NCBI GenBank assembly: GCA_024413595.1
Contig: JAKSUC010000002.1
Span: forward strand, 35,335-99,334
Reading direction: 5' to 3'
Length of the DNA stretch: 64,000 nt
Source: Bacteroidales bacterium
GTDB taxonomy: Bacteria > Bacteroidota > Bacteroidia > Bacteroidales > UBA3824
This document shows, one piece after another, positions 9,178 through 32,094 of the stretch; positions within the stretch are counted from its first letter, which is position 1; every line of letters starts with the position of its first letter. Both the position numbers and the translations under genes were made by a program. The notes under the pieces were generated by a model that worked only from the letters and a program-made list of their open reading frames with translations, was not told the origin of the DNA and did no database searches.

Positions 9178-10667
9178 CTTAAATTGTCGAAATCAAATTG
9201 TTCAGAAAGAGAAATACCTTTATCAAAATCGAATAAAGTTTGCTGACGTAAATTATAATAACAATACCAATATTGATATAAACTTGAAATATAATTGTTT
9301 TGAGCCGATACCATTCGTTGTTGAGAACTTGTTAATGTTGTGATATTACAAGAACCTTCTTGAAATCTAAGAATATTTTCTTGATAAATTTCATTAGCAA
9401 GATTTTGTGCAGTTAAAGCACTTTGAAGCATATTATAACGCGAATTTAATTCCCCAATAGTAATAGTTAAATTTTGTTCAAGTTCTTGAATTTGTTGTTC
9501 TTGGTCAATTTTAGCAATATTTAAATTGCTTTCAGCTTGATTTTTTTGCCCTTTTCTCATTCCCCAATCCATAATAGGAATAGCCATCGAAACTGAAATA
9601 ACATCTTTACGCATCAAATCTTTATAAGCATCAGCAATTTCTTCGGCTTGTTGGTTAAAACCAACATTTGCATTTACGCTAATAGTCATTCTATTAGATT
9701 TTTTAATACGGTCGTATTCTTTTTCTGCTTCTAATACAGATTGTTTGTTTTCTAATAATTGATAACTATTTTTATGAAGATATTCTAATGCTAATTCGTT
9801 GTCAATGATTAATTCATTAGGATTTTCAGGAAGAATTAATTCTATTTTTGTGGATTTATCAATTCCTAAAAACGAAGTTAAAGCTAAAGATGCTTTTTGC
9901 ATATCCACTTCAGCTTGTGCAATTTCGTTTTTTGCATTTACAATTTCAAGTTGAATATCCATTAAATCAGTTTTGGTTATAGACGCAATTTTAAATCTTC
10001 GTTCAGCAATAATAAGCGTTGTATCAGCTTTTTGAGCGTTGTTTATAGCATTTTTGTATCTAACTTGCGCTTGTGCTAAATTAAAAAAATATGTAACAGC
10101 ATTTGATGCAATTTGTTCTGCATTATATAAATATTGAAGTTTTGCTTTTTCAAATTTTAGAGGTTCAATTTTTTTGTCCCATTTAAATTGATTAAAACCA
10201 AACATATTGTGTTGATATCCAATACTAAAAGGAGCAGAAGTAAATTGATTATAAGTATTTGCTCCAAAATATCTTAAATAATCTAAACTTGATTGAATAA
10301 AAAATGTACCACCTAAAGGGTCAAAATTTTGAGAAAGCATTAAACTGCCACTGGCAGAATATGATTTTTGTTGACGATAAACATCTATATCGTTTTCAGA
10401 GTCATATCTTTGTATTAATTGGCGATTATATGAAACAGGAACTAAATTTAAACTTAACGAAGGCAAACGATTAGCTTTATAATTTCGATACGACCAATAA
10501 TTAGATAAATACATATTTTTATATCTAAAAGCCGTAAGCGAACTATCTTGAGCTTTTTCAATTGTTTGGTTTAAATCGAGATATAAAACATTTGAGTTTT
10601 GTCCAAAAATTGGAACATATACAAATGTTAATATTGATATTATTATTGTTTTTATAATGTTATTCAT
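9174..10667 (-). CDS. TolC-family outer-membrane efflux protein
   Basis: 497 aa with a signal peptide and two-fold repeated coiled-coil/beta regions. It is embedded between two RND permease genes and overlaps both neighbours. Confidence 0.8.
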   Translation of the reverse strand: MNNIIKTIIISILTFVYVPIFGQNSNVLYLDLNQTIEKAQDSSLTAFRYKNMYLSNYWSYRNYKANRLPSLSLNLVPVSYNRQLIQRYDSENDIDVYRQQKSYSASGSLMLSQNFDPLGGTFFIQSSLDYLRYFGANTYNQFTSAPFSIGYQHNMFGFNQFKWDKKIEPLKFEKAKLQYLYNAEQIASNAVTYFFNLAQAQVRYKNAINNAQKADTTLIIAERRFKIASITKTDLMDIQLEIVNAKNEIAQAEVDMQKASLALTSFLGIDKSTKIELILPENPNELIIDNELALEYLHKNSYQLLENKQSVLEAEKEYDRIKKSNRMTISVNANVGFNQQAEEIADAYKDLMRKDVISVSMAIPIMDWGMRKGQKNQAESNLNIAKIDQEQQIQELEQNLTITIGELNSRYNMLQSALTAQNLANEIYQENILRFQEGSCNITTLTSSQQRMVSAQNNYISSLYQYWYCYYNLRQQTLFDFDKGISLSEQFDFDNLR

Positions 10668-13737: not shown

Positions 13738-14781
13738 TTAGTAAATTATTTCGGTTTTGTCGGCTAAATAAGTGTTGCCAGAAACTATAACAGAGTCGCC
13801 GGCTTCAATGCCTGAAATTATTGCAATATTATCGCTATTTTCGATTGAAGTTTCAACATAACACCATCTTGCCAAACCATCTTTGGCTGTAAATACTACA
13901 GGACGATTTGAACGTAAAACCACTGCACTTTTAGGAACTGAAATAAATTCTCCAGCATTTTTACTTATTTTGATACTAACATTCATTCCTTCAAACAATT
14001 CAGAACCATTATTTACAGTAGCTTTTACGCGAACCATTCCGTTATTTTCTACAAATGGATTTATTTCTTTTATTTGACCTGTCCATTTTTTGTCGGGCAT
14101 TGAATATGCCGAAATTTCAACCTTGCCACCTACGGTAACCATGTTTAATTCATTTTCAATAACTGTAAATTCTACACACATAGAATTTTGATCTATTATT
14201 CGGCAAAATGGTTTTGAATTTGAAGTTAAATTACTAACACGGTCATTTAAATTTGCAACCACGCCACTTATTGGAGCTTTTATGGTGCTATGTTCGTAAT
14301 CGTATTTTGTTGAATTATAAGATGATAGTGATTGTAGATAACCACTTTTGATTTCAGCCAATTTTATAATATTATCTGGAATATTAGTTGAGTCGGGATT
14401 ATAACCTTGACCAATAATAGTTTCCTTCATATTTAGTTTTGATTGTTCAAGATTTGCTTGAGCCGACTCAAATTGATTTTTTAATTTATAAGCGTCTAAT
14501 TTTGCGATAGTTGTTCCTGCTTGAACATGTCTACCATTATTGGTAAAAATTTCAGAAATTGTTCCGCTTACTTCCCAATAAATATCTGCATATTTGTCGG
14601 CTGTAATTTTTCCATTGCTTACAATTTCTAAAGCAAATTGACCTTTTTTTGCAACTTCGGTTGTAACTTGTTGACGATCTTCAACAAGAATATTTTGTTG
14701 ACGTTCTTCTTCTGGCTTTTCTTTTGACGAACAAGAAGCCAAAATCAATGAGATTGAGGTTAGTATTAATCCGTATTTCAC
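13738..14781 (-). CDS. efflux RND periplasmic adaptor (MFP/HlyD family) lipoprotein
   Basis: 347 aa. GTG start (cac at 14779-14781), lipobox LILASC, and barrel-sandwich/beta-barrel adaptor-like sequence. First gene of the efflux operon. Confidence 0.8.
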   Translation of the reverse strand: MKYGLILTSISLILASCSSKEKPEEERQQNILVEDRQQVTTEVAKKGQFALEIVSNGKITADKYADIYWEVSGTISEIFTNNGRHVQAGTTIAKLDAYKLKNQFESAQANLEQSKLNMKETIIGQGYNPDSTNIPDNIIKLAEIKSGYLQSLSSYNSTKYDYEHSTIKAPISGVVANLNDRVSNLTSNSKPFCRIIDQNSMCVEFTVIENELNMVTVGGKVEISAYSMPDKKWTGQIKEINPFVENNGMVRVKATVNNGSELFEGMNVSIKISKNAGEFISVPKSAVVLRSNRPVVFTAKDGLARWCYVETSIENSDNIAIISGIEAGDSVIVSGNTYLADKTEIIY

Positions 14782-15432
14782 TTTTTTTATTTAATTAGAT
14801 GATTATTAGTTTTTTTCAAATTAATAGTTAGAATAGATTTATAATTAATTAACACGACAAACTTAGTTAATTTTTTATTAACTAACTATTTTTTGAGATT
14901 TTTTTTTAATAAAAAATGTTAAATGAAATAATGTTTTTAATTCAGTATTTAGTGTTATAAAATATAAAAAAGGAGAAAAATTTATTTTCTCCTTTTTTAA
15001 TTATTCATGAATTAACTAAAAAGCCATACCTTCCACCGAATAAACAATCGGTTTTTCTTTAGAATTTGTTTTAACATAAATTTCGCGAACAAATTCTTCT
15101 GGTTTATCGGTTTTGAAAGATACTGAAACTATTGCAGAATCAGACTTTTTAATTACAGATTTGTCAATTTTTGCAGTAGTACATTCACAAGATGTAAAAA
15201 TTGTATCAATTTTCATTTCTACTAAACTATCATTTTTCAATACAAACTGAGTTTTCATAGTATCCGAAAAAGGGAAACGTCCAAACGAAAAACGGTTTTC
15301 ATTTTGATTATCAGCAATATTTATATTTGTTGTATCAATTCCCAAACGTTCACAAATTGTACGAATATATAGGTCTTTGATTTTGGGATTTTGAACTGGA
15401 TTACCAATTAGAATTACGCGATTGTTTTCGTC
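14664..15432. repeat. segmental duplication block, copy 1 (MFP 5' end, intergenic region, terminator, DUF1573 and the thioredoxin-fold gene 3' half)
   Basis: By-eye alignment shows near-identity with 17641-18403. The 15016-15432 part is also near-identical to 21248-21659. Confidence 0.85.
14971..14993 (-). terminator. rho-independent terminator after cassette 1
   Basis: AGGAGAAAA-attta-TTTTCTCCT flanked by A6 and T6 runs. It is 23 nt downstream of the stop of the 15016..15879 gene. Confidence 0.8.
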
Positions 15433-15879
15433 AAGAAGGAAACATCTAAATTGTTCTTTATCAGGAAAATGATTTAATTTGTTAAAAGAATCATTTATAT
15501 CAATACAAGTTGGATAATTATAATCGGATGTAATAATTTCAAACAAAGCTTCACTTTGACGTTTTGGACTTATATATTTTAAAATCAAAACATTATTATT
15601 AGTAAGAGATAATATATTTTGATTTAAAGTTTTCCATTCGTGCAACTTTAATTGACAACCTATGCAACCTTTTGGATCTGTATAAGTAACAATTTTTAGT
15701 TTATTATCATTGCAATTTATCTTTAAAGTATCATAACCAGATAAAAAAATAGAGCTATCAGAAAAAATAATCTCTTTATTACTCCAATCTTTTATAAGTT
15801 GTTCTATATCATTCTTTACTTGATTTTGACAAGAAATACAAATAAATATAGACAAAATTATAAAGTAAAACTTTTTCAT
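15016..15879 (-). CDS. cassette 1: thioredoxin-fold (TlpA/redoxin-like, CxxC) lipoprotein fused to a DUF1573 domain
   Basis: 287 aa. Lipobox FICISC, the redoxin pattern KIVTYTDPKGCIGCQ and FLLDENNRVILIG, and a C-terminal DUF1573-like beta-sandwich (FSFGRF...FVLKNDS...TSCECTTAKID...). Confidence 0.7.
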   Translation of the reverse strand: MKKFYFIILSIFICISCQNQVKNDIEQLIKDWSNKEIIFSDSSIFLSGYDTLKINCNDNKLKIVTYTDPKGCIGCQLKLHEWKTLNQNILSLTNNNVLILKYISPKRQSEALFEIITSDYNYPTCIDINDSFNKLNHFPDKEQFRCFLLDENNRVILIGNPVQNPKIKDLYIRTICERLGIDTTNINIADNQNENRFSFGRFPFSDTMKTQFVLKNDSLVEMKIDTIFTSCECTTAKIDKSVIKKSDSAIVSVSFKTDKPEEFVREIYVKTNSKEKPIVYSVEGMAF

Positions 15880-16958: not shown

Positions 16959-17183
16959 TTATCTAGGACATAAATTTGCATTTAATAAGTCATTACGATG
17001 ACCATTACAATCACATCCGCCAGTCCAATCTTTACAACCATATGGACAACCACTTTCCCCTTGTGCCAAAAGTTCTACATTTTCCATTTGTAATTCAGAC
17101 AAATTATTATTATTATTGTTTATTTGGAATACGCCAAACACTACTGCAACTGCAACTGCTACCGATATAATTAATTTTTTCAT
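16959..17183 (-). CDS. cassette 1: NVEALA-motif small Cys-rich secreted peptide
   Basis: 74 aa: MKKLIISVAVAVAVVFGVFQ, poly-N, LSELQMENVELLAQGE, then the core SGCPYGCKDWTGGCDCNGHRNDLLNANLCPR (5 Cys). Confidence 0.8.
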   Translation of the reverse strand: MKKLIISVAVAVAVVFGVFQINNNNNNLSELQMENVELLAQGESGCPYGCKDWTGGCDCNGHRNDLLNANLCPR

Positions 17184-17505
17184 TTTTGTATAAAATTTGT
17201 GAATTTTCTCAGACTATGATAAATTTTTATCTCTAAGAAAAATTAATAAATAAATTTATAAAAAAAGATACACTTAAAAATTTTAGTTAAGTGTCGTTAT
17301 CGCACATTAATTTCTTGAATTATGTTGACAACTTTTTGGATGGTTAATACGTTTAAGTTTTCGTAGCTTTATTATTTAAAGTTAGACAATAGGGGAAATG
17401 GTTGAGAAGTTTGGAGGACGTCCGCAATCACTCCCCTTTTTTTATAACCATATTTTTCTTAATGATTACGAAACAAATGTATAGTAGTAATTTTACATTT
17501 CCAAA
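17184..17505 (-). promoter_or_regulatory. promoter plus ~280-nt conserved 5' leader of peptide gene 1 (copy A)
   Basis: On the minus strand, TTTG (17502-17505) and TAcaTTTG (17474-17481) are separated by a 20-nt spacer. The leader holds two conserved hairpins: ACACTTAA/TTAAGTGT at 17270-17294, and AGGGGA...TCCCCT at 17391-17437 followed by T7 on the plus strand. It is roughly 90% identical by eye to 20838-21157 and 24086-24409. Confidence 0.6.
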
Positions 17506-17640
17506 TATTTTTTCATCTTTTTTTTATTTTTTTGCGTATTGAATATAAAATATTGATTATTAATTAGTATTATACAAAAAATAGAATAATATTCGAAAAT
17601 ATATTGATTACACAAATTTAAATAACCACATTTTTTGTAG

Positions 17641-17758
17641 TAACTTGTTGACGGTCTTCAATAAGAATGTTTTGTTGACGTTCTTTTTCTGGCTTTTCTT
17701 TTGAAGAACAAGAAACCAGAATCAAAGAGATAGTTGATAGTATTAATCCGTATTTCAC
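17641..17758 (-). pseudogene. duplicated 5' fragment of the MFP adaptor gene
   Basis: The minus strand reads (GTG)KYGLILSTISLILVSCSSKEKPEKERQQNILIEDRQQVTT, then diverges and stops. It matches the first ~41 codons of the 13738..14781 gene, and the upstream region is duplicated as well. Confidence 0.85.
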
Positions 17759-17941
17759 TTTTTTATATATTAGATGATTATTAGTTTTTCAAATTAATAG
17801 TTAAAATAGATTTATAATTAATTAACACGATAAACTTAGTTAATTTTTTATTAATAAACTATTTTTTGCGATTTTTTTTAATAAAAAATGTTAAATGAAA
17901 TAATGTTTTTAATTCAATATTTAGTGTTAAAAATATAAAAA

Positions 17942-17964
17942 AGGAGAAAAATTTATTTTCTCCT
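17942..17964 (-). terminator. rho-independent terminator after cassette 2 (duplicate of 14971-14993)
   Basis: Same AGGAGAAAA-attta-TTTTCTCCT hairpin with flanking A and T runs. Confidence 0.8.
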
Positions 17965-17986
17965 TTTTTAATTATTTATGAATTAA

Positions 17987-18187
17987 CTAAAAAGCCATAC
18001 CTTCCACTGAATAAACAATAGGTTTTTCGTTAGAATTTGTTTTAACATAAACTTCACGCGAAAACTCTTCAGGTTTATCGGTTTTGAAAGTTACAGAAAT
18101 AATTGCAGAATCAGACTTTTTAATTACAGATTTGTCAATTTTTGCAGTAGTACATTCACAAGATGTAAAAATTGTATCAATTTTCAT
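17987..18187 (-). CDS. cassette 2: DUF1573 C-terminal segment, cut off from the thioredoxin-fold ORF by an in-frame TAA
   Basis: 66 aa, nearly identical to residues 222-287 of the cassette 1 fusion protein. It is in frame with 18209..18862 across a TAA at 18209-18211. Confidence 0.6.
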   Translation of the reverse strand: MKIDTIFTSCECTTAKIDKSVIKKSDSAIISVTFKTDKPEEFSREVYVKTNSNEKPIVYSVEGMAF

Positions 18188-18208
18188 TTCTAATAAACTA
18201 TCATTTTT

Positions 18209-18862
18209 TTAAACAAACTGAGTTTTCATTGTATCCGAAAATGGAAAACGTCCAAATGAAAAACGGTTTTCTTTTTGATTTTCAGCAATATTTATATTTG
18301 TTGTATCAATTCCCAAACGTTCGCAAATTGTACGAATATATAGGTCTTTGATTTTAGGATTTTGAACTGGATTGCCAATAAGAATTACGCGATTGTTTTC
18401 GTCTAATAAAAAACAATGAAAACGTTCATCTGACGGAAAATTATTTAGTATGTTTAGAGAATCGTTATAATCAATGAAAATAGGATAATCAAAACCACTA
18501 GTTTTAAGAATAGTTTTGAAATTTCGTGTCTGAATAATATCATCTTTAGGATTAAATGTTATAATAGTTGGACATTTGTTATCAGAAAGTTTCATAATTT
18601 GTTTAATAAAATTATTCCAAACTTCTAATTTTAATTTACAACTTGAACATCCAGAAGAATCTATATATCTAAGCAATTTTACTTTACTTTTGACTTCTAA
18701 TATATTATTGTCTTTATTTGTTGTATAAAAATTTATATCTTGTGGAAATTCTATTTTTTTATTTGTCCATTGCGCAAATAAATCATAAGATTTTTTTGCT
18801 GTATCATTACAAGATATTAATGTTATAATTAAGACAAATATTAATACAAATTTAGTTTTCAT
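18209..18862 (-). CDS. cassette 2: thioredoxin-fold (CxxC) lipoprotein, truncated within the DUF1573 domain
   Basis: The likely start is MKTKFVLIFVLIITLISC (ATG at 18860-18862), since the track ORF extends to 18889. CxxC motif SGCSSCKLKL. The C-terminal half is identical to cassettes 1 and 3. Confidence 0.65.
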   Translation of the reverse strand: MKTKFVLIFVLIITLISCNDTAKKSYDLFAQWTNKKIEFPQDINFYTTNKDNNILEVKSKVKLLRYIDSSGCSSCKLKLEVWNNFIKQIMKLSDNKCPTIITFNPKDDIIQTRNFKTILKTSGFDYPIFIDYNDSLNILNNFPSDERFHCFLLDENNRVILIGNPVQNPKIKDLYIRTICERLGIDTTNINIAENQKENRFSFGRFPFSDTMKTQFV

Positions 18863-20576: not shown

Positions 20577-20837
20577 TTACATATGTCCTGTAATACATGG
20601 ATATGGACAACTACCATTGCATTTACTCCCACTTTGCGCACCAACACCTACAACATCACACCATTTATTATTGAAAAAAGCATTCTTACAACAATTATTA
20701 ATTATTTCACCATAATCAGCTAATGCTTCTAAATTATCCATTTGTAATTCACTCAATTGATTATTATTTTGATTAGCTTGGAATACACCAAATGCACTTG
20801 CTGCAATAAAAGCTACAGCGATAAATAATTTTTTCAT
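20577..20837 (-). CDS. cassette 2: NVEALA-motif small Cys-rich secreted peptide
   Basis: Likely start MKKLFIAVAFIAASAFGVFQANQNNNQLSELQMDNLEALADYGE (ATG at 20835-20837), then the core IINNCCKNAFFNNKWCDVVGVGAQSGSKCNGSCPYPCITGHM (6 Cys). Confidence 0.8.
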   Translation of the reverse strand: MKKLFIAVAFIAASAFGVFQANQNNNQLSELQMDNLEALADYGEIINNCCKNAFFNNKWCDVVGVGAQSGSKCNGSCPYPCITGHM

Positions 20838-21157
20838 TTTTGTTAAAATTTTGCATTTTCTTAGACTTTGAATATTTTTTACGTCCAAGAAAAAAATTAA
20901 TAATTTAATAGATAAAATAAATCCACTTAAAAATATAAATTAAGTGTCGTTATCGCACATTAATTCCTTGAATTATGTTGACAACTTTTTGGATGGTTAA
21001 TACGTTTAAGTTTTCATAGCTTTTTATTTAAAGTTAAACAATAGGGGAGATGGTTGAGAAGTTTGGAGGACGTCCGCAATCACTCCCCTTTTTTTATAAC
21101 CATATTTTTCTTAATGATTACGCAACAAATGTATAGTAGTTATTTTACATTTCCAAA
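20838..21157 (-). promoter_or_regulatory. promoter plus conserved 5' leader (copy B)
   Basis: On the minus strand, TTTG (21154-21157) and TAcaTTTG (21126-21133) with a 20-nt spacer. Same hairpins as copy A. Confidence 0.6.
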
Positions 21158-21247
21158 TATTTTTTCAATATTTTTTTGTTTTTTTAATATGATATATAAT
21201 TTTTTGATTATAAAATATTTAGTTTAACTGTTTTATTAAATTATGTA

Positions 21248-21451: not shown

Positions 21452-21659
21452 TTCTAATAAACTATCATTTTTTTAAACAAACTGAGTTTTCATTGTATCC
21501 GAAAATGGAAAACGTCCAAATGAAAAACGGTTTTCTTTTTGATTTTCAGCAATATTTATATTTGTTGTATCAATTCCCAAACGTTCGCAAATTGTACGAA
21601 TATATAGGTCTTTGATTTTGGGATTTTGAACGGGATTGCCAATAAGAATTACGCGATTG
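21248..21659. repeat. homogenised 3' block, copy 3
   Basis: Near-identical by eye to 15016-15432 and 17987-18403. Confidence 0.8.
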
Positions 21660-23843: not shown

Positions 23844-24085
23844 TTAATTAGGATAACTATCAGGACAACGCTCAGTATATCCAGTACTTGTATACATTAT
23901 ATCACAATACCAATAAGGATTATAATGACATACCATACGACATCCATATGAAGCACTTTCACCTTGTGCCAAAAGTTCAGCATTTTCCATTTGTAATTCA
24001 CTCAATTGATTATTATTTTGATTAGCTTGGAATCACCAAATGCACTTGCTGCAATAAAAGCTACAGCGATAAATAATTTTTTCAT
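23844..24085 (-). pseudogene. cassette 3: NVEALA-motif peptide gene with a 1-nt deletion (frameshift)
   Basis: The span is 242 nt, which is not a multiple of 3. Compared with gene 2 (ggaatacaccaaatgc), this copy reads ggaatcaccaaatgc. The conceptual repair gives MKKLFIAVAFIAASAFGVFQANQNNNQLSELQMENAELLAQGE followed by SASYGCRMVCHYNPYWYCDIMYTSTGYTERCPDSYPN. Confidence 0.8.
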
Positions 24086-24409
24086 TTTTGTTAAAATTTT
24101 GCATTTTCTTAGACTTTGAATATTTTTTACGTCCAAGAAAAAAATTAATAATTTAATAGATAAAATAAATCCACTTAAAAATAAAAATTAAGTGTCGTTA
24201 TCGCACATTAATTCCTTGAATTATGTTGACAACTTTTGGATGGTTAATTCGTTTAAGTTTTCATAGCTTTATTATTTAAAGTTAGACAATAGGGGAAATG
24301 GTTGAGAAGTTTGGTAGACGTACGCAATCACTCCCCTTTTTATTTTTATAACCATATTTTTCTTAATGATTACGTAACAAATTTATGATAGTAATTTTAC
24401 ATTTCCAAA
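24086..24409 (-). promoter_or_regulatory. promoter plus conserved 5' leader (copy C)
   Basis: On the minus strand, TTTG (24406-24409) and TAaaTTTG (24378-24385) with a 20-nt spacer. Same hairpins as the other copies, with clustered substitutions at the tip of the GGGGA hairpin. Confidence 0.55.
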
Positions 24410-24538
24410 TATTTTTTCAACTTTTTTTTTGTTTTTTTTAATATGATATATAATTTTTTGATTATAAAATATTTAGTTTAACTGTTTTATTAAATTATTA
24501 TGTGTGTATTATATAATTTAAATACCAAATAAATGATT

Positions 24539-29799: not shown

Positions 29800-30087
29800 T
29801 TATTTACATCTTCTAATAACTTCTACGCAAGCAACTGAACTACAAGAACAATCACGAGAACAAATATTATTTTCCCACATATAGTTTGAAACACGGTATT
29901 CTGCAATACCCCAATCACAATTATTACTACCTCCACCACCTGAGCTTTCTCCATTTTCTGCACCCAATGCTAGTAATTCTACATTTTCCATTTGTAAATC
30001 ACTCAATTGATTATTATTTTGATTTGCTTGGAATATACCAAAAGCACCTGCAGCTACTATGGCTACTGATATAAAAAGTTTTTTCAT
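29800..30087 (-). CDS. cassette 4: NVEALA-motif small Cys-rich secreted peptide
   Basis: 95 aa: MKKLFISVAIVAAGAFGIFQANQNNNQLSDLQMENVELLALGAE, then the core NGESSGGGGSNNCDWGIAEYRVSNYMWENNICSRDCSCSSVACVEVIRRCK (6 Cys). Confidence 0.8.
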   Translation of the reverse strand: MKKLFISVAIVAAGAFGIFQANQNNNQLSDLQMENVELLALGAENGESSGGGGSNNCDWGIAEYRVSNYMWENNICSRDCSCSSVACVEVIRRCK

Positions 30088-30219
30088 GTTTTCTTTATGT
30101 TTTAAGATTAAAAATTAATAAAACAACCGGTTGGTCAAACTTCCAAGAAAAACAAATTTAATTTTTTGAGTCACTAGTAAAATCAAAATCTTAAATAGTT
30201 CTTTTAGGTTTTGACGATG

Positions 30220-30251
30220 CAAATATAGAAAACGCATTTTTTATTTCCAAA
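30220..30251 (-). promoter_or_regulatory. promoter of peptide gene 4
   Basis: On the minus strand, TTTG (30248-30251) and TAtaTTTG (30220-30227) with a 20-nt spacer. It shares the AAAATATTTGGAAA context with the three other peptide promoters. Confidence 0.55.
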
Positions 30252-30402: not shown

Positions 30403-32094
30403 TTAATCATACATAATTTGATAATCTTTTTTTCTACCTCTAATCCAAAATTCTTGAGGAATAGCTTTCCAATTTCCTTTAGCATGAGGCGAAACAACTT
30501 TCATTTCTTCGATATGACGCATAATAATATATCGTAAATCTTTGCTAGTTGCAGAAGAAATACGTTCTAATAAATTTTCGTGACAAATACCAGAACCATC
30601 AGTTAAATGACCACCGCCACCATTTCCACGATACGAATTTATGGCAACAGTATAAATTTTGTCAAGTTCAAATGGTCGTCCATCGGAAAAACTTTGAATT
30701 GTAATTTTTTCACCAGCAGGTTTTGTTAAGTCAACTGTATAATTTATACCAGAAGCAGATGAATAATTATAAAATTTTCCAGCGGTTCGGTCGTTGCCTT
30801 TTTCGTCAACTTCAAAAAGAACAAGATGATCTTTTTTGTCGCTCATTGTGTTAAACCATGTTCCGTAAGAATATTCAAGATAATCGAGAATTTCTTTACC
30901 TGAAAGTTTCATTGTATATAGCAGATTTTCAAACTTGTAAAGTTTAAACATATCTCTAATACAAACTGTACCTTTTGACACTTTGCTATCAAAAGTTAAA
31001 GGAGCTGCAAACGAAACATCAGCACCAGTTTCTTCTAATTGAATACTATGAATTAAATCAACAAAAGCCGAATTTCCAAACATTGCATCTCTTGACGAAA
31101 TTGTTCTTGTAAATTTTGCAATTGGTTTAGAAACATAATGTTTAATCATGTTGATATAGTCAGAATAGCGTTTCATCATTTCGCTATCTGGTTCACAGCT
31201 ATTCATTTCCATGATTAAACCAGTAATTTTTTTATCTATGAGTTTATCACCGTCTTTTTTTACTTGAATAGAAGCAACAGCAGCTAATTTAGCGCAATTT
31301 TTAGGGTCAAGAATAATAACGCGTCCGCCTTCTGAATTTCTAACCACCATATTAAATTCTTGATGATCGTGACCTGCAAAAATCAAATCAAATCCAGGAA
31401 CTTTTTGAGCCACAAGATTAGAAGCGTTTTCGTTTTTATATTCTTCGTCACTTCTATTATTATAAGTGCTATCAACTCCAGAATGACATAAACCAACAAT
31501 AATATCTGGATTTTCTTTTTCTTTAACAATTTTAATCCATTTTTGAGCACATTCCACCATATCTTGAAATTCGATACCTTCCCAAATTTTTTCAGGAAGC
31601 CAAACAGGAATTGATGGAGTAATAAACCCAATAATAGCAATTTTTACATTTTTACGCGTAATAATTGTATATGGCTTAAAATAAGGTTCCCCCGTTAATT
31701 TATTAACAGCATTTGCTGCCAACCATGGAAAATTAAATTCATTAATAAGTTTGTCATAAACTTCATGCCCAGTTTCAATATCATGATTACCAACGCTTGC
31801 AGCATCGTATTTCATAAAATTCATAACATCGGCACAAATATGCGACTCGCCAGGTTTTCTTTCGTAGTTTGAATAATAAACCACAGGTTGACCTTGAAGA
31901 AAATCTCCATTGTCTAATAAAATCACTTCTTGACTAGTAACGCTACGTTGTTCTTTAATATAAGTGTAAACTTGAGCTAAAGAAGTGTTAAGAGGTTCAT
32001 TTTCAATAAAATCGTATGGAAAAATAGCTCCGTGTACGTCGCCTGTTGCGATTATTTTTATTTTGATGGTTTCCGGAACCGTTGTATTTTCCAT
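30403..32094 (-). CDS. bifunctional metallophosphatase / 5'-nucleotidase (UshA/CpdB-like)
   Basis: 563 aa. Calcineurin-like motifs GDVHGA, DNGDFLQG, GNHD and GHDH, plus a C-terminal 5'-nucleotidase domain. Confidence 0.8.
   Translation of the reverse strand: MENTTVPETIKIKIIATGDVHGAIFPYDFIENEPLNTSLAQVYTYIKEQRSVTSQEVILLDNGDFLQGQPVVYYSNYERKPGESHICADVMNFMKYDAASVGNHDIETGHEVYDKLINEFNFPWLAANAVNKLTGEPYFKPYTIITRKNVKIAIIGFITPSIPVWLPEKIWEGIEFQDMVECAQKWIKIVKEKENPDIIVGLCHSGVDSTYNNRSDEEYKNENASNLVAQKVPGFDLIFAGHDHQEFNMVVRNSEGGRVIILDPKNCAKLAAVASIQVKKDGDKLIDKKITGLIMEMNSCEPDSEMMKRYSDYINMIKHYVSKPIAKFTRTISSRDAMFGNSAFVDLIHSIQLEETGADVSFAAPLTFDSKVSKGTVCIRDMFKLYKFENLLYTMKLSGKEILDYLEYSYGTWFNTMSDKKDHLVLFEVDEKGNDRTAGKFYNYSSASGINYTVDLTKPAGEKITIQSFSDGRPFELDKIYTVAINSYRGNGGGGHLTDGSGICHENLLERISSATSKDLRYIIMRHIEEMKVVSPHAKGNWKAIPQEFWIRGRKKDYQIMYD

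Follow-up and report, generated by a model that had tools for sequence, protein, structure and literature searches.

Among the described systems closest to the element discussed here are the DonS-type cis-antisense RNAs of Bacteroides. These RNAs are 78-128 nt long, are transcribed from promoters of the sigma-ABfr type and lie opposite the 5' region of susC-like genes in polysaccharide utilization loci (PULs), and duplex formation followed by cleavage or decay has been proposed for them (PMC7366714). The element in question, at positions 17184-17470, belongs to a 64-kb window (the whole stretch of 64,000 nt that was analysed, from contig JAKSUC010000002.1 of a Bacteroidales bacterium), which has a GC content of 27.5% and carries four cassettes with NVEALA-family peptide genes, here called A to D, on the minus strand. 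In this segment, and in its copies in cassettes B and C, a structured leader that is conserved and does not code for protein takes its local, AT-rich form. The best explanation of the segment, to which a rough probability of 0.5 is given, would be that two overlapping transcription units share it, namely the leader of the peptide mRNA and a short antisense RNA embedded in it. Like the DonS-type RNAs, this antisense RNA would occur in Bacteroidales, use the sigma-ABfr promoter type, be short (predicted 83-95 nt), lie opposite the 5' region of an operon and be present in one copy before each paralogous operon. Unlike them, its target is an NVEALA-peptide operon and not a PUL, it shows no sequence similarity and no Rfam match, it is predicted to lie wholly within a long structured leader and convergent with the sense promoter, and it is not encoded beside an anti-sigma gene. 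Membership in the DonS family was rejected, since the neighbours are NVEALA, TolB-like propeller, DUF1573 and RND genes, with no SusC/SusD genes.

Three further classes of systems share parts of this layout. The rep leaders of pT181/pIP501, Anti-Q/prgQ of pCF10 (PMC3181467) and RnaG/icsA (PMC2879508) have convergent promoters with an overlap of ~100 nt, an antisense RNA against the 5' part of the leader and an intrinsic terminator shortly before the genes, and the leader transcript of pCF10 codes for a secreted peptide as well. However, these attenuation systems switch the leader by an alternative fold on antisense binding, and no such alternative was found here. Type I toxin-antitoxin systems (ldr/rdl, tisB/istR, hok/sok) likewise combine a small gene encoding a hydrophobic N-terminus and a long structured 5' untranslated region (UTR) with a short antisense RNA against this UTR, far upstream of the start codon. 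Their toxin is a stand-alone small hydrophobic open reading frame (ORF) of usually <60 amino acids (aa), whereas the NVEALA products have 74-95 aa, a signal-like N-terminus and a Cys-rich core, and each is encoded by the first gene of an operon that further contains genes for beta-propeller and DUF1573 proteins, a signal peptidase S26 and RND export; for this reason, this class was rejected. The NVEALA product resembles a peptide that is secreted or processed rather than a membrane toxin. Terminator-type riboswitches and the leaders of UpxY/LoaP NusG paralogues also have a long conserved 5' leader with covarying helices, ending in a hairpin and U-tract before a specialised, secondary-metabolite-like operon, but neither a ligand pocket nor a conserved junction of several helices was recognised in the leader, no NusG paralogue was seen in the neighbourhood and no Rfam match was obtained. 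What the element does share with structured cis-regulatory leaders in general is a position always upstream of NVEALA genes, compensatory changes and the absence of a codon-position bias.

The sense leader is well supported. The promoter, leader and both hairpins reported by the first-pass annotation were all recovered, at most 1-2 nt from the positions it gave, and the promoter layout that it proposed for the minus strand of all four cassettes, TTG-N20-TAnnTTTG, is present in A to D (Table 1). This layout is the consensus of sigma-ABfr, the primary sigma factor of Bacteroidetes (PMC7366714), and has 25 matches on the minus strand and 30 on the plus strand of the entire window. A scan with sigma-70 and terminator patterns was uninformative for Bacteroidetes promoters. 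In cassette A, the transcription start site (TSS) is predicted at about 17467-17469, and the distance from the last G of the -7 box (17474) to the ATG (17183) corresponds to a predicted 5' UTR of ~285 nt, likewise in B and C, compared to a median of 32 nt in B. thetaiotaomicron (PMC7366714). Cassette D, for which a promoter with only a short, unrelated leader had been noted, indeed has the promoter and a predicted 5' UTR of ~127 nt, in which neither nhmmer nor the covariance model found a match.

By self-BLASTN, promoter, leader and peptide N-terminus are 86% (A/B), 84% (A/C) and 95.6% (B/C) identical, whereas peptide cores and propeller genes could not be aligned between the cassettes. The 3' ends of the cassettes, comprising the end of the DUF1573 gene, the terminator and the start of the RND adaptor gene, are likewise 87-90% identical. 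Because of this equal similarity, selection cannot be separated from segmental duplication or gene conversion within the window, and the decisive evidence for leader conservation is the cross-genome comparison.

This comparison was made with 43 loci from rumen and gut metagenomes and metagenome-assembled genomes (MAGs), collected by a search with the NVEALA profile and by contig look-ups. Earlier scans of genomes and metagenomes with peptide patterns had yielded only 3 + 2 loci, and a 19-mer scan of viral contigs gave 0 matches. An nhmmer profile of the leader detected the element immediately before NVEALA-type genes in 26 of the fetched loci, in addition to the window. The homologous leaders come from about 10 other lineages with GC contents up to ~50%, are ~250-330 nt long and fall into groups (Table 1) that differ in the 3' domain of the leader. 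The shared order of blocks starts with an A-rich tract, the composite hairpin P1, CCCUAUUGUnnAAC and, in groups I and III only, AAGGAGGU, continues with AAACGUA or CAAAnnUAC, the helix P2 (GGUUGC/GCAGCC and variants) and further helices, and ends with a terminal hairpin with a U-rich tail (groups III and V), an AU-rich spacer and the ATG. A covariance model, R1, built from four foreign group-I sequences only, matched the window leaders with E-values of 7.2e-4, 3.3e-3 and 0.025, group II with 7e-5 and group III with 0.003-0.4, always on the strand of the gene. A further R1 match, at 30874-30960 on the plus strand, is weak (17.5 bits, E 0.42), falls within coding sequence and most likely arose by chance.

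Both checks suggested by the first-pass annotation, a search against Rfam with Infernal and a covariance model from homologous loci, point to a family of its own. No family in Rfam 15 reached its threshold in the 24-kb region, in seven loci or in three isolated leaders; the best leader matches scored 11-25 bits at thresholds of 40-114 bits, and the sub-threshold matches cover only terminator-like hairpins. In the searched literature, 'NVEALA' occurs in no paper, and related Pfam/DUF identifiers occur only in unrelated papers. As judged from the alignments, the leader is an uncatalogued family of structured RNAs before NVEALA genes in many Bacteroidales.

In the model-derived alignment, whose fit to the modelled structure somewhat inflates the covariation figures, the helices P1 and P2 show changes on both sides in 14/16 pairs, and P1 alone in 9/10 pairs. 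There, 91.3% of the cells are paired compared to 70.3% in shuffled alignments (0/500 shuffles reach the observed value), and the covariation score of 0.434 exceeds the 0.154 of shuffles and the <=0.129 of slid controls. RNAalifold predicted 0 pairs on a plain MAFFT alignment of 14 leaders because the stems are out of register there, and this alignment was replaced by hand-registered helices and the model-derived alignment. Thermodynamic z-scores of the 3' domain did not discriminate between the strands. At the site of P1, stems of different sequence occur in different lineages (GGGGAG/CUCCCC, GGGCGACG/CGCCGCCC, GGCUGCGC/GCGCAGCC, GAAGGAGUG/CACUCCUUC). The conservation of the leader is therefore functional and not merely recent, and the possibility raised by the first-pass annotation that recent duplication fully explains it does not agree with the homologous leaders in other Bacteroidales lineages and the compensatory changes in P1 and P2.

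The strand of action had been described as ambiguous, with an antisense-strand terminator or small RNA (sRNA) proposed instead of, or in addition to, a sense leader structure. A comparison helix by helix favours the latter. The 5'-terminal hairpin P0 folds with -3.6 kcal/mol on the sense strand and 0.0 kcal/mol on the antisense strand, its variants show 10 sense-only and 3 antisense-only wobbles, and its CGTAATCA is common to group III homologues (L024, L001). P2, whose position is occupied by GGUUGC/GCAGCC and similar helices in other lineages, is stabler on the sense strand in 10/12 variants (RNAalifold -6.50 sense vs -4.67 antisense), with 9 G.U and 0 A.C cells and 97.5% of the cells paired on the sense strand compared to 86.1% on the antisense strand. 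The sense advantage of P0 and P2 averages about 2.4 kcal/mol. The third such structure is the CACTTAA hairpin (hairpin 2), for which a kept stem with free loops had been noted: in A to C, identical stems enclose the three loops CTAAAATTT, TTTATATTT and TTTTTATTT, and none of the 14 stem nucleotides varies, against an identity of ~60-70% between A and B in the rest of this stretch. Its stem has a predicted probability of 0.96-0.98 in the full leader. On the sense RNA, the hairpin runs into AUCUUUUUUUAU in A, and in B and C into GAUUUAUUUUAU. Stronger hairpins, with UACUUUUAG or AUAAUUUUAA after them, close the group III leaders. Hairpin 2 looks like a leaky sense terminator or attenuator, as far as the fold predictions go. 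P0, P2 and hairpin 2 behave as sense-strand structures in these comparisons, and their sense-only wobbles are the reason why the combination of a sense leader with an antisense RNA fits best.

P1 shows the opposite tendency. Its fold is the stabler one on the plus (antisense) strand in 12/16 variants, with -14.0/-18.2/-13.6 kcal/mol in A/B/C compared to -13.6/-14.2/-10.7 kcal/mol on the sense strand, so that the sense leader, too, can adopt this hairpin, with lower stability. For groups I, II and IV, the antisense advantage amounts to 3-8 kcal/mol, compared to 0.4-4 kcal/mol for the window copies, and RNAalifold gave -7.36 for the antisense and -6.34 for the sense strand. In the hand-registered basal helices, 6 antisense-type wobbles (A.C on the sense strand) stand against 2 sense-type wobbles. 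Moreover, a T-rich tract follows P1 on the antisense strand in about 14/16 variants (T7 in the window, T8-T9 in L001/L024, TTTTTAT in L006, TCTCTTTTTGTT in L002), while 3' of P1 on the sense strand a conserved CCCUAUUGU is found. With a predicted hairpin of -14 to -18 kcal/mol followed by T7, P1 has the form of an intrinsic terminator on the plus strand and is probably the terminator stem of a cis-antisense sRNA.

Upstream of antisense P1, a TAnnTTT box is found at a distance of 33-39 nt in 15/16 variants, compared to a chance expectation of 0.02-0.06 per lineage. The consensus positions of this box are invariant and the 'nn' varies (TA, TG, CT, CG): group III has TATATTTG or TATGTTTG, group IV has TACTTTTG, cassettes A and B of the window share TACGTTTA, and groups I and II have TACGTT(T/C)(C/T). 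The perfect TAnnTTTG is thus seen in groups III and IV. Cassette C carries TTCGTTTA (24248-24255), a mutated form of the box, and this loss in the same cassette as a frameshifted peptide gene was counted in favour of the antisense unit. Between box and P1 lies the predicted single-stranded tail. It is the complement of the sense block CCCUAUUGUnnAAC, to which AAGGAGGU is added in other lineages; these blocks are conserved across groups I, III and V, and in groups I and III the tail includes ACCUCCUU. Taken together, the odds are about even that a cis-antisense sRNA of ~83 nt at about 17361-17444 on the plus strand, consisting of a tail of ~30 nt, P1 and a U-tract, is encoded here. Because the antisense TSS would fall between the -7 box and P1, P2 lies outside the predicted sRNA, which fits its purely sense-type constraints. 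The proposal of the first-pass annotation that the composite hairpin acts as an antisense-strand terminator or sRNA besides the sense leader thus gains support from the T-tract, the TAnnTTT box and the P1 energies.

Under this reading, the sense mRNA would begin with P0, the A-tract, P1, a single-stranded linker (CCCUAUUGU..AAC ... AAACGUA) and P2. The CACTTAA hairpin with its U-tract would come next, ~75 nt upstream of the ATG, and serve as a leaky intrinsic terminator. Here, most sense transcripts would stop, giving a leader RNA of ~210 nt, and the peptide operon would be expressed by read-through. On the plus strand, the -7 box TACGTTTA inside the linker (17348-17355) would drive the ~83-nt sRNA, which would be perfectly complementary to leader nt ~+25 to +108. 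The ~95% identity of this target stretch among A, B and C means that the sRNA could work on each of these cassettes. The likely mode of action would be duplex-triggered cleavage or destabilisation, or else transcriptional interference with the sense promoter, which lies only ~25 nt beyond the antisense terminator. The two convergent promoters would be about 105 nt apart. Antisense transcription, the terminator activity of both hairpins and the regulatory outcome are all deduced from sequence.

Several observations weigh against the combination of sense leader and antisense sRNA. The model-derived alignment is biased by its fit to the modelled structure and misplaces the long P2 of the window. 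Group III reverses the strand preference of P1, with the sense fold being stabler, and in the sense-fitted model alignment P1 has 7 G.U and 7 A.C cells and is paired to 88% on either strand. P1 wobble counts alone do not decide the strand, and the argument of the first-pass annotation from one-sided G.U pairs is not decisive: it holds for the inner P1 helix, which has A.C on the minus and G.U on the plus strand, whereas in A and C the outer helix contains a G.U pair that works only on the minus strand. Some group I loci, such as L016 with GATTATATAT, have a poor T-tract on the antisense strand, and neither P1 nor hairpin 2 was called by a simple terminator scan. For P1 this is due to its long, irregular hairpin, as the scan allows loops of <=8 nt; hairpin 2, with 7-8 bp, 2 G-C pairs and about -6 kcal/mol, falls below the >=3 G-C pairs used there. 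Groups I and II have no clear sense terminator at the end of the leader.

The promoter evidence also has weak points. The window antisense -7 box ends in A and not in G; group III sense promoters also use TTG-N20-TAnnTTTA. At the -33 position, the window has TTG-N20 (17325-17327), but no TTTG is conserved in the other lineages; the -33 motif is not always detectable in Bacteroidetes (PMC7366714). TAnnTTT[GA] occurs ~200 times per strand in the window. As regards the regulatory outcome, no antiterminator alternative involving hairpin 2 was found within 5 kcal/mol in A and B, and copy C has a single alternative fold about 4.5 kcal/mol above the optimum. Masking the antisense target left the predicted terminator probability unchanged (0.96/0.96, 0.97/0.98, 0.99/0.99), and antisense-controlled attenuation was rejected on this ground.

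Table 1. Coordinates of the predicted features in the window, and loci of the leader groups.
Feature	Position or loci	Strand	Sequence or remark
Sense promoter TTG-N20-TAnnTTTG	17504-17474 (A), 21156-21126 (B), 24408-24378 (C), 30250-30220 (D)	-	Pattern scan
Sense promoter, cassette A	17474..17508	-	ATATTTGG (-33 TTTG/TTG), 20-nt spacer, TACATTTG (-7 box)
Equivalent sense promoters	21126-21160 (B), 24378-24412 (C), 30220-30250 (D)	-	
P0, 5'-terminal hairpin	17444..17469	-	GUAAUCAU...AUGGUUAU; two sense-only G.U pairs
T7 tract directly 3' of P1	17437-17443	+	A-run on sense RNA; proposed antisense-terminator U-tract
P1, composite hairpin	17392-17436 (A), 21044-21088 (B), 24292-24336 (C)	+	GGGGA(A/G).TGGTTG ... 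CAATCA.CTCCCC
Predicted single-stranded 5' tail of antisense sRNA	17361..17391	+	Predicted TSS, +-3 nt
Predicted antisense promoter, cassette A	17325..17355; -7 box 17348-17355	+	TTG-N20-TACGTTTA
Predicted antisense promoter, identical copy in cassette B	20978-21008	+	TTG-N20-TAnnTTTA match
P2, sense-strand hairpin	17296..17332	-	GUUGUC[ACAUAAUU...AAUU.AUGU]GAUAAC
Hairpin 2	17271-17293 (A), 20924-20946 (B), 24172-24194 (C)	-	ACACUUAA-loop-UUAAGUGU
Hairpin 2 plus downstream U-tract	17258..17293	-	AUCUUUUUUUAU; proposed leaky intrinsic terminator/attenuator
AU-rich spacer, hairpin 2 to peptide ATG (17183)	17184..17257	-	~60-70% identity A vs B/C
NVEALA-family peptide gene A, served by the leader	16959..17183	-	74 aa; PF14055, E 1.6e-9
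NVEALA gene B	20577-20837	-	Pfam PF14055
NVEALA gene C, frameshifted	about 23844-24085	-	Pfam PF14055
NVEALA gene D	29800-30087	-	Pfam PF14055
Leader group I	L006, L016, L004/L036, L037, L042, L005, L011 (14.4 kb)		
Leader group II	L010-15, L019-23		
Leader group III	L001, L002/L009 (6.7 kb), L024 (two copies)		
Leader group IV	L002 (3.7 kb), L024-28		
Leader group V	The window		

The alternative that survives best is a purely sense-strand cis-regulatory leader, for example a protein- or ligand-binding RNA or a processing or stability element, with no antisense RNA made. Here, the A-tract and the CAAAnnUA block would be features of the sense RNA such as protein-binding sites, and the A.C mismatches in P1 would be tolerated. 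The whole window leader folds with a z-score of -3.57 on the sense strand compared to -1.59 on the antisense strand, and since P2, P0 and the terminal hairpin also favour the sense strand, the structured sense leader itself is taken as real. P1 is wobble-neutral in the model alignment and sense-favoured in group III, and the antisense strand lacks a conserved -33 element. In groups I and II, the leader is located within operons, either after a small ORF (sORF) of 65-70 aa or directly after the DUF1573 stop, which fits an element serving the downstream gene. However, a sense-only leader leaves unexplained the T-tract after P1 on the other strand, the invariant TAnnTTT letters of the linker block at a fixed distance, and the 3-8 kcal/mol antisense advantage of P1 seen in four of five groups. 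It is therefore regarded as a possible, if somewhat unlikely, account of the segment.

It is considerably less probable that the segment is mainly an independent sense sRNA gene of ~210 nt, reaching from the promoter to hairpin 2 and acting on targets in trans, with the peptide genes using read-through. In groups III and V, the promoter is directly upstream and a hairpin with U-tract ends the element 30-85 nt before the ATG, with a terminator stem probability of 0.96-0.99 in the window and L024, and the pattern scan detected no conserved or second promoter box in the spacer. Yet the element is tied to an NVEALA gene at every locus, and in groups I and II it has neither its own promoter nor a clear terminator; a target in trans was not found either, no search aimed at one having been made.

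The absence of any function, with leader similarity resulting from recent tandem duplication and gene conversion of cassette ends, is highly improbable. The equal conservation of the cassette 3' ends and an identical in-frame TAA in the DUF1573 genes of B and C, which shows recent homogenisation, agree with it, but blocks and helix positions are kept in unrelated MAGs of very different GC content, the compensatory changes affect nearly all pairs of P1 and P2, and the stems of hairpin 2 are invariant amid diverged sequence.

A small protein encoded by the region can hardly be the explanation either. Gene callers place an ORF of 113/114 aa on the homologous region in L010, L014 and L019, but it is absent from group I and the window. 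The other candidate is a 6-codon ORF, ATGTGCGATAACGACACTTAA, which ends in hairpin 2 and could act as a leader peptide. The three cassettes A, B and C share it without a change, but the other groups lack a counterpart, and its AUG is buried in P2. No conserved start codon follows the conserved AAGGAGGU. The 113-aa ORF over group II leaders was rejected as coding, since changes at codon positions 1/2/3 number 22/14/11, with no third-position excess. No ORF of >=30 aa was found on the sense strand of the window leader. The 6-codon ORF (ATG TGC GAT AAC GAC ACT TAA) is located at 17288-17308 on the minus strand, is the same in B and C, and has its stop within the 5' arm of the CACTTAA hairpin.

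Further observations concern the sequence in and around the homologous leaders. The block AAGGAGGU resembles a Shine-Dalgarno (SD) sequence and is perfectly conserved in groups I and III (L016 ~9828-9836, L001 ~2378-2386), with no conserved start codon after it. Bacteroidetes rarely use SD sequences. On the antisense strand, the block reads ACCUCCUU, and the window has AAAGCUAC at that position. In groups I and II, a conserved sORF of 65-72 aa precedes the leader (L010 9397-9594, L016 9515-9727, L037 671-889, L019 1488-1685); its product has a hydrophobic N-terminus, a Pro-rich tail with a KKLPGQP motif and no Pfam match, and it is not found in the window by tblastn. In L010 and L016, a TAaaTTTG promoter drives this sORF, the leader and the NVEALA gene, and upstream of it lies an array of (T/A)TTGCAA repeats (L010 9170-9350, L016 9290-9460), which look like transcription factor binding sites by their sequence. 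Other types of upstream region exist as well. A second leader type of ~130 nt is conserved between L003 (1165-1306) and L008 (1655-1810), and L029-L035 have a third type of ~180 nt without match. A homology of the cassette D leader (30088-30220, minus strand) to L003/L008 was unconvincing, as only the promoter-proximal TTTGCAnCGyCrAAA is common to both.

Each of the four window cassettes opens with a small PF14055 gene, followed by TolB-like beta-propeller and DUF1573 genes, with an RND adaptor and pump downstream. The NVEALA products of 74-95 aa have Cys-rich cores and are each encoded by the first gene of a multi-gene operon; peptide A has a signal-like N-terminus, an LQMENVELLA motif and a Cys-rich core. 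Compared to B, gene C has a 1-nt deletion near 24033/24034 (GGTGTATTCC -> GGTGATTCC) that results in two ORFs, and it is probably a pseudogene. In the same cassette, the tip of P1 differs by three substitutions and the predicted antisense -7 box is mutated. The in-frame TAA of the DUF1573 genes in B and C (18209-18211; 21473-21475, minus strand), where A encodes Leu (FVLKND in A, FV*KND in B and C), splits these genes into ORFs of 217-226 aa and 66-67 aa. This shared nonsense mutation points to recent gene conversion between the cassettes. Selenocysteine was ruled out here because the stop is TAA, despite a weak match to the NCBIfam family 'OS_HP2 (seleno)protein'. A segmental duplication with 90% identity, 14660-15518 and 17637-18489, spans the end of the DUF1573 gene, a bidirectional terminator (14965-14999; 17936-17970) and ~130 nt at the start of the RND adaptor gene, and has left a truncated adaptor fragment (ORF 17618-17758) upstream of the cassette A promoter.

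According to the gene tables, the NVEALA neighbourhood is kept in L010, L014, L016, L019, L024 and L029. It includes DUF4221/DUF5128/TolB-like propeller, DUF1573, a 646-aa F5/8-type-C protein, signal peptidase S26, a Wzy_C/TPR protein and the RND adaptor and pump, with a Ser/Thr kinase and a PP2C phosphatase upstream. This gene content suggests a dedicated peptide processing and export system.

The antisense target is near-identical among the paralogous cassettes of one genome, whereas the peptide cores are hypervariable, and each antisense RNA could therefore silence the other cassettes in trans. It is only tentatively suggested, as a rather unlikely extension of the reading with leader and antisense sRNA, that both form an undescribed regulatory module, dedicated to NVEALA cassettes across Bacteroidales and their RiPP-like, secreted, Cys-rich peptides, with such cross-cassette silencing. 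Pairing of the antisense tail in trans with the translation-initiation region of the peptide genes gave no signal (z about -1.5 to +0.4). If true, the module would provide cross-cassette control, for instance by restricting expression to a single peptide variant at any given moment.

NVEALA peptides (PF14055) and their propeller and DUF1573 partners are common in gut and rumen Bacteroidales, and the searched literature contains no functional paper on them. A structured leader of ~250-330 nt is unusual beside the typical Bacteroides 5' UTRs of ~30 nt. A more general lesson is that a hairpin within a leader can be selected on the strand opposite to that of its neighbours, which a helix-by-helix comparison of wobbles and energies reveals. 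Together with the probable cis-antisense RNA, the leader offers a testable regulatory handle on the NVEALA system and would add a new RNA family to the few characterised riboregulators of Bacteroidetes.

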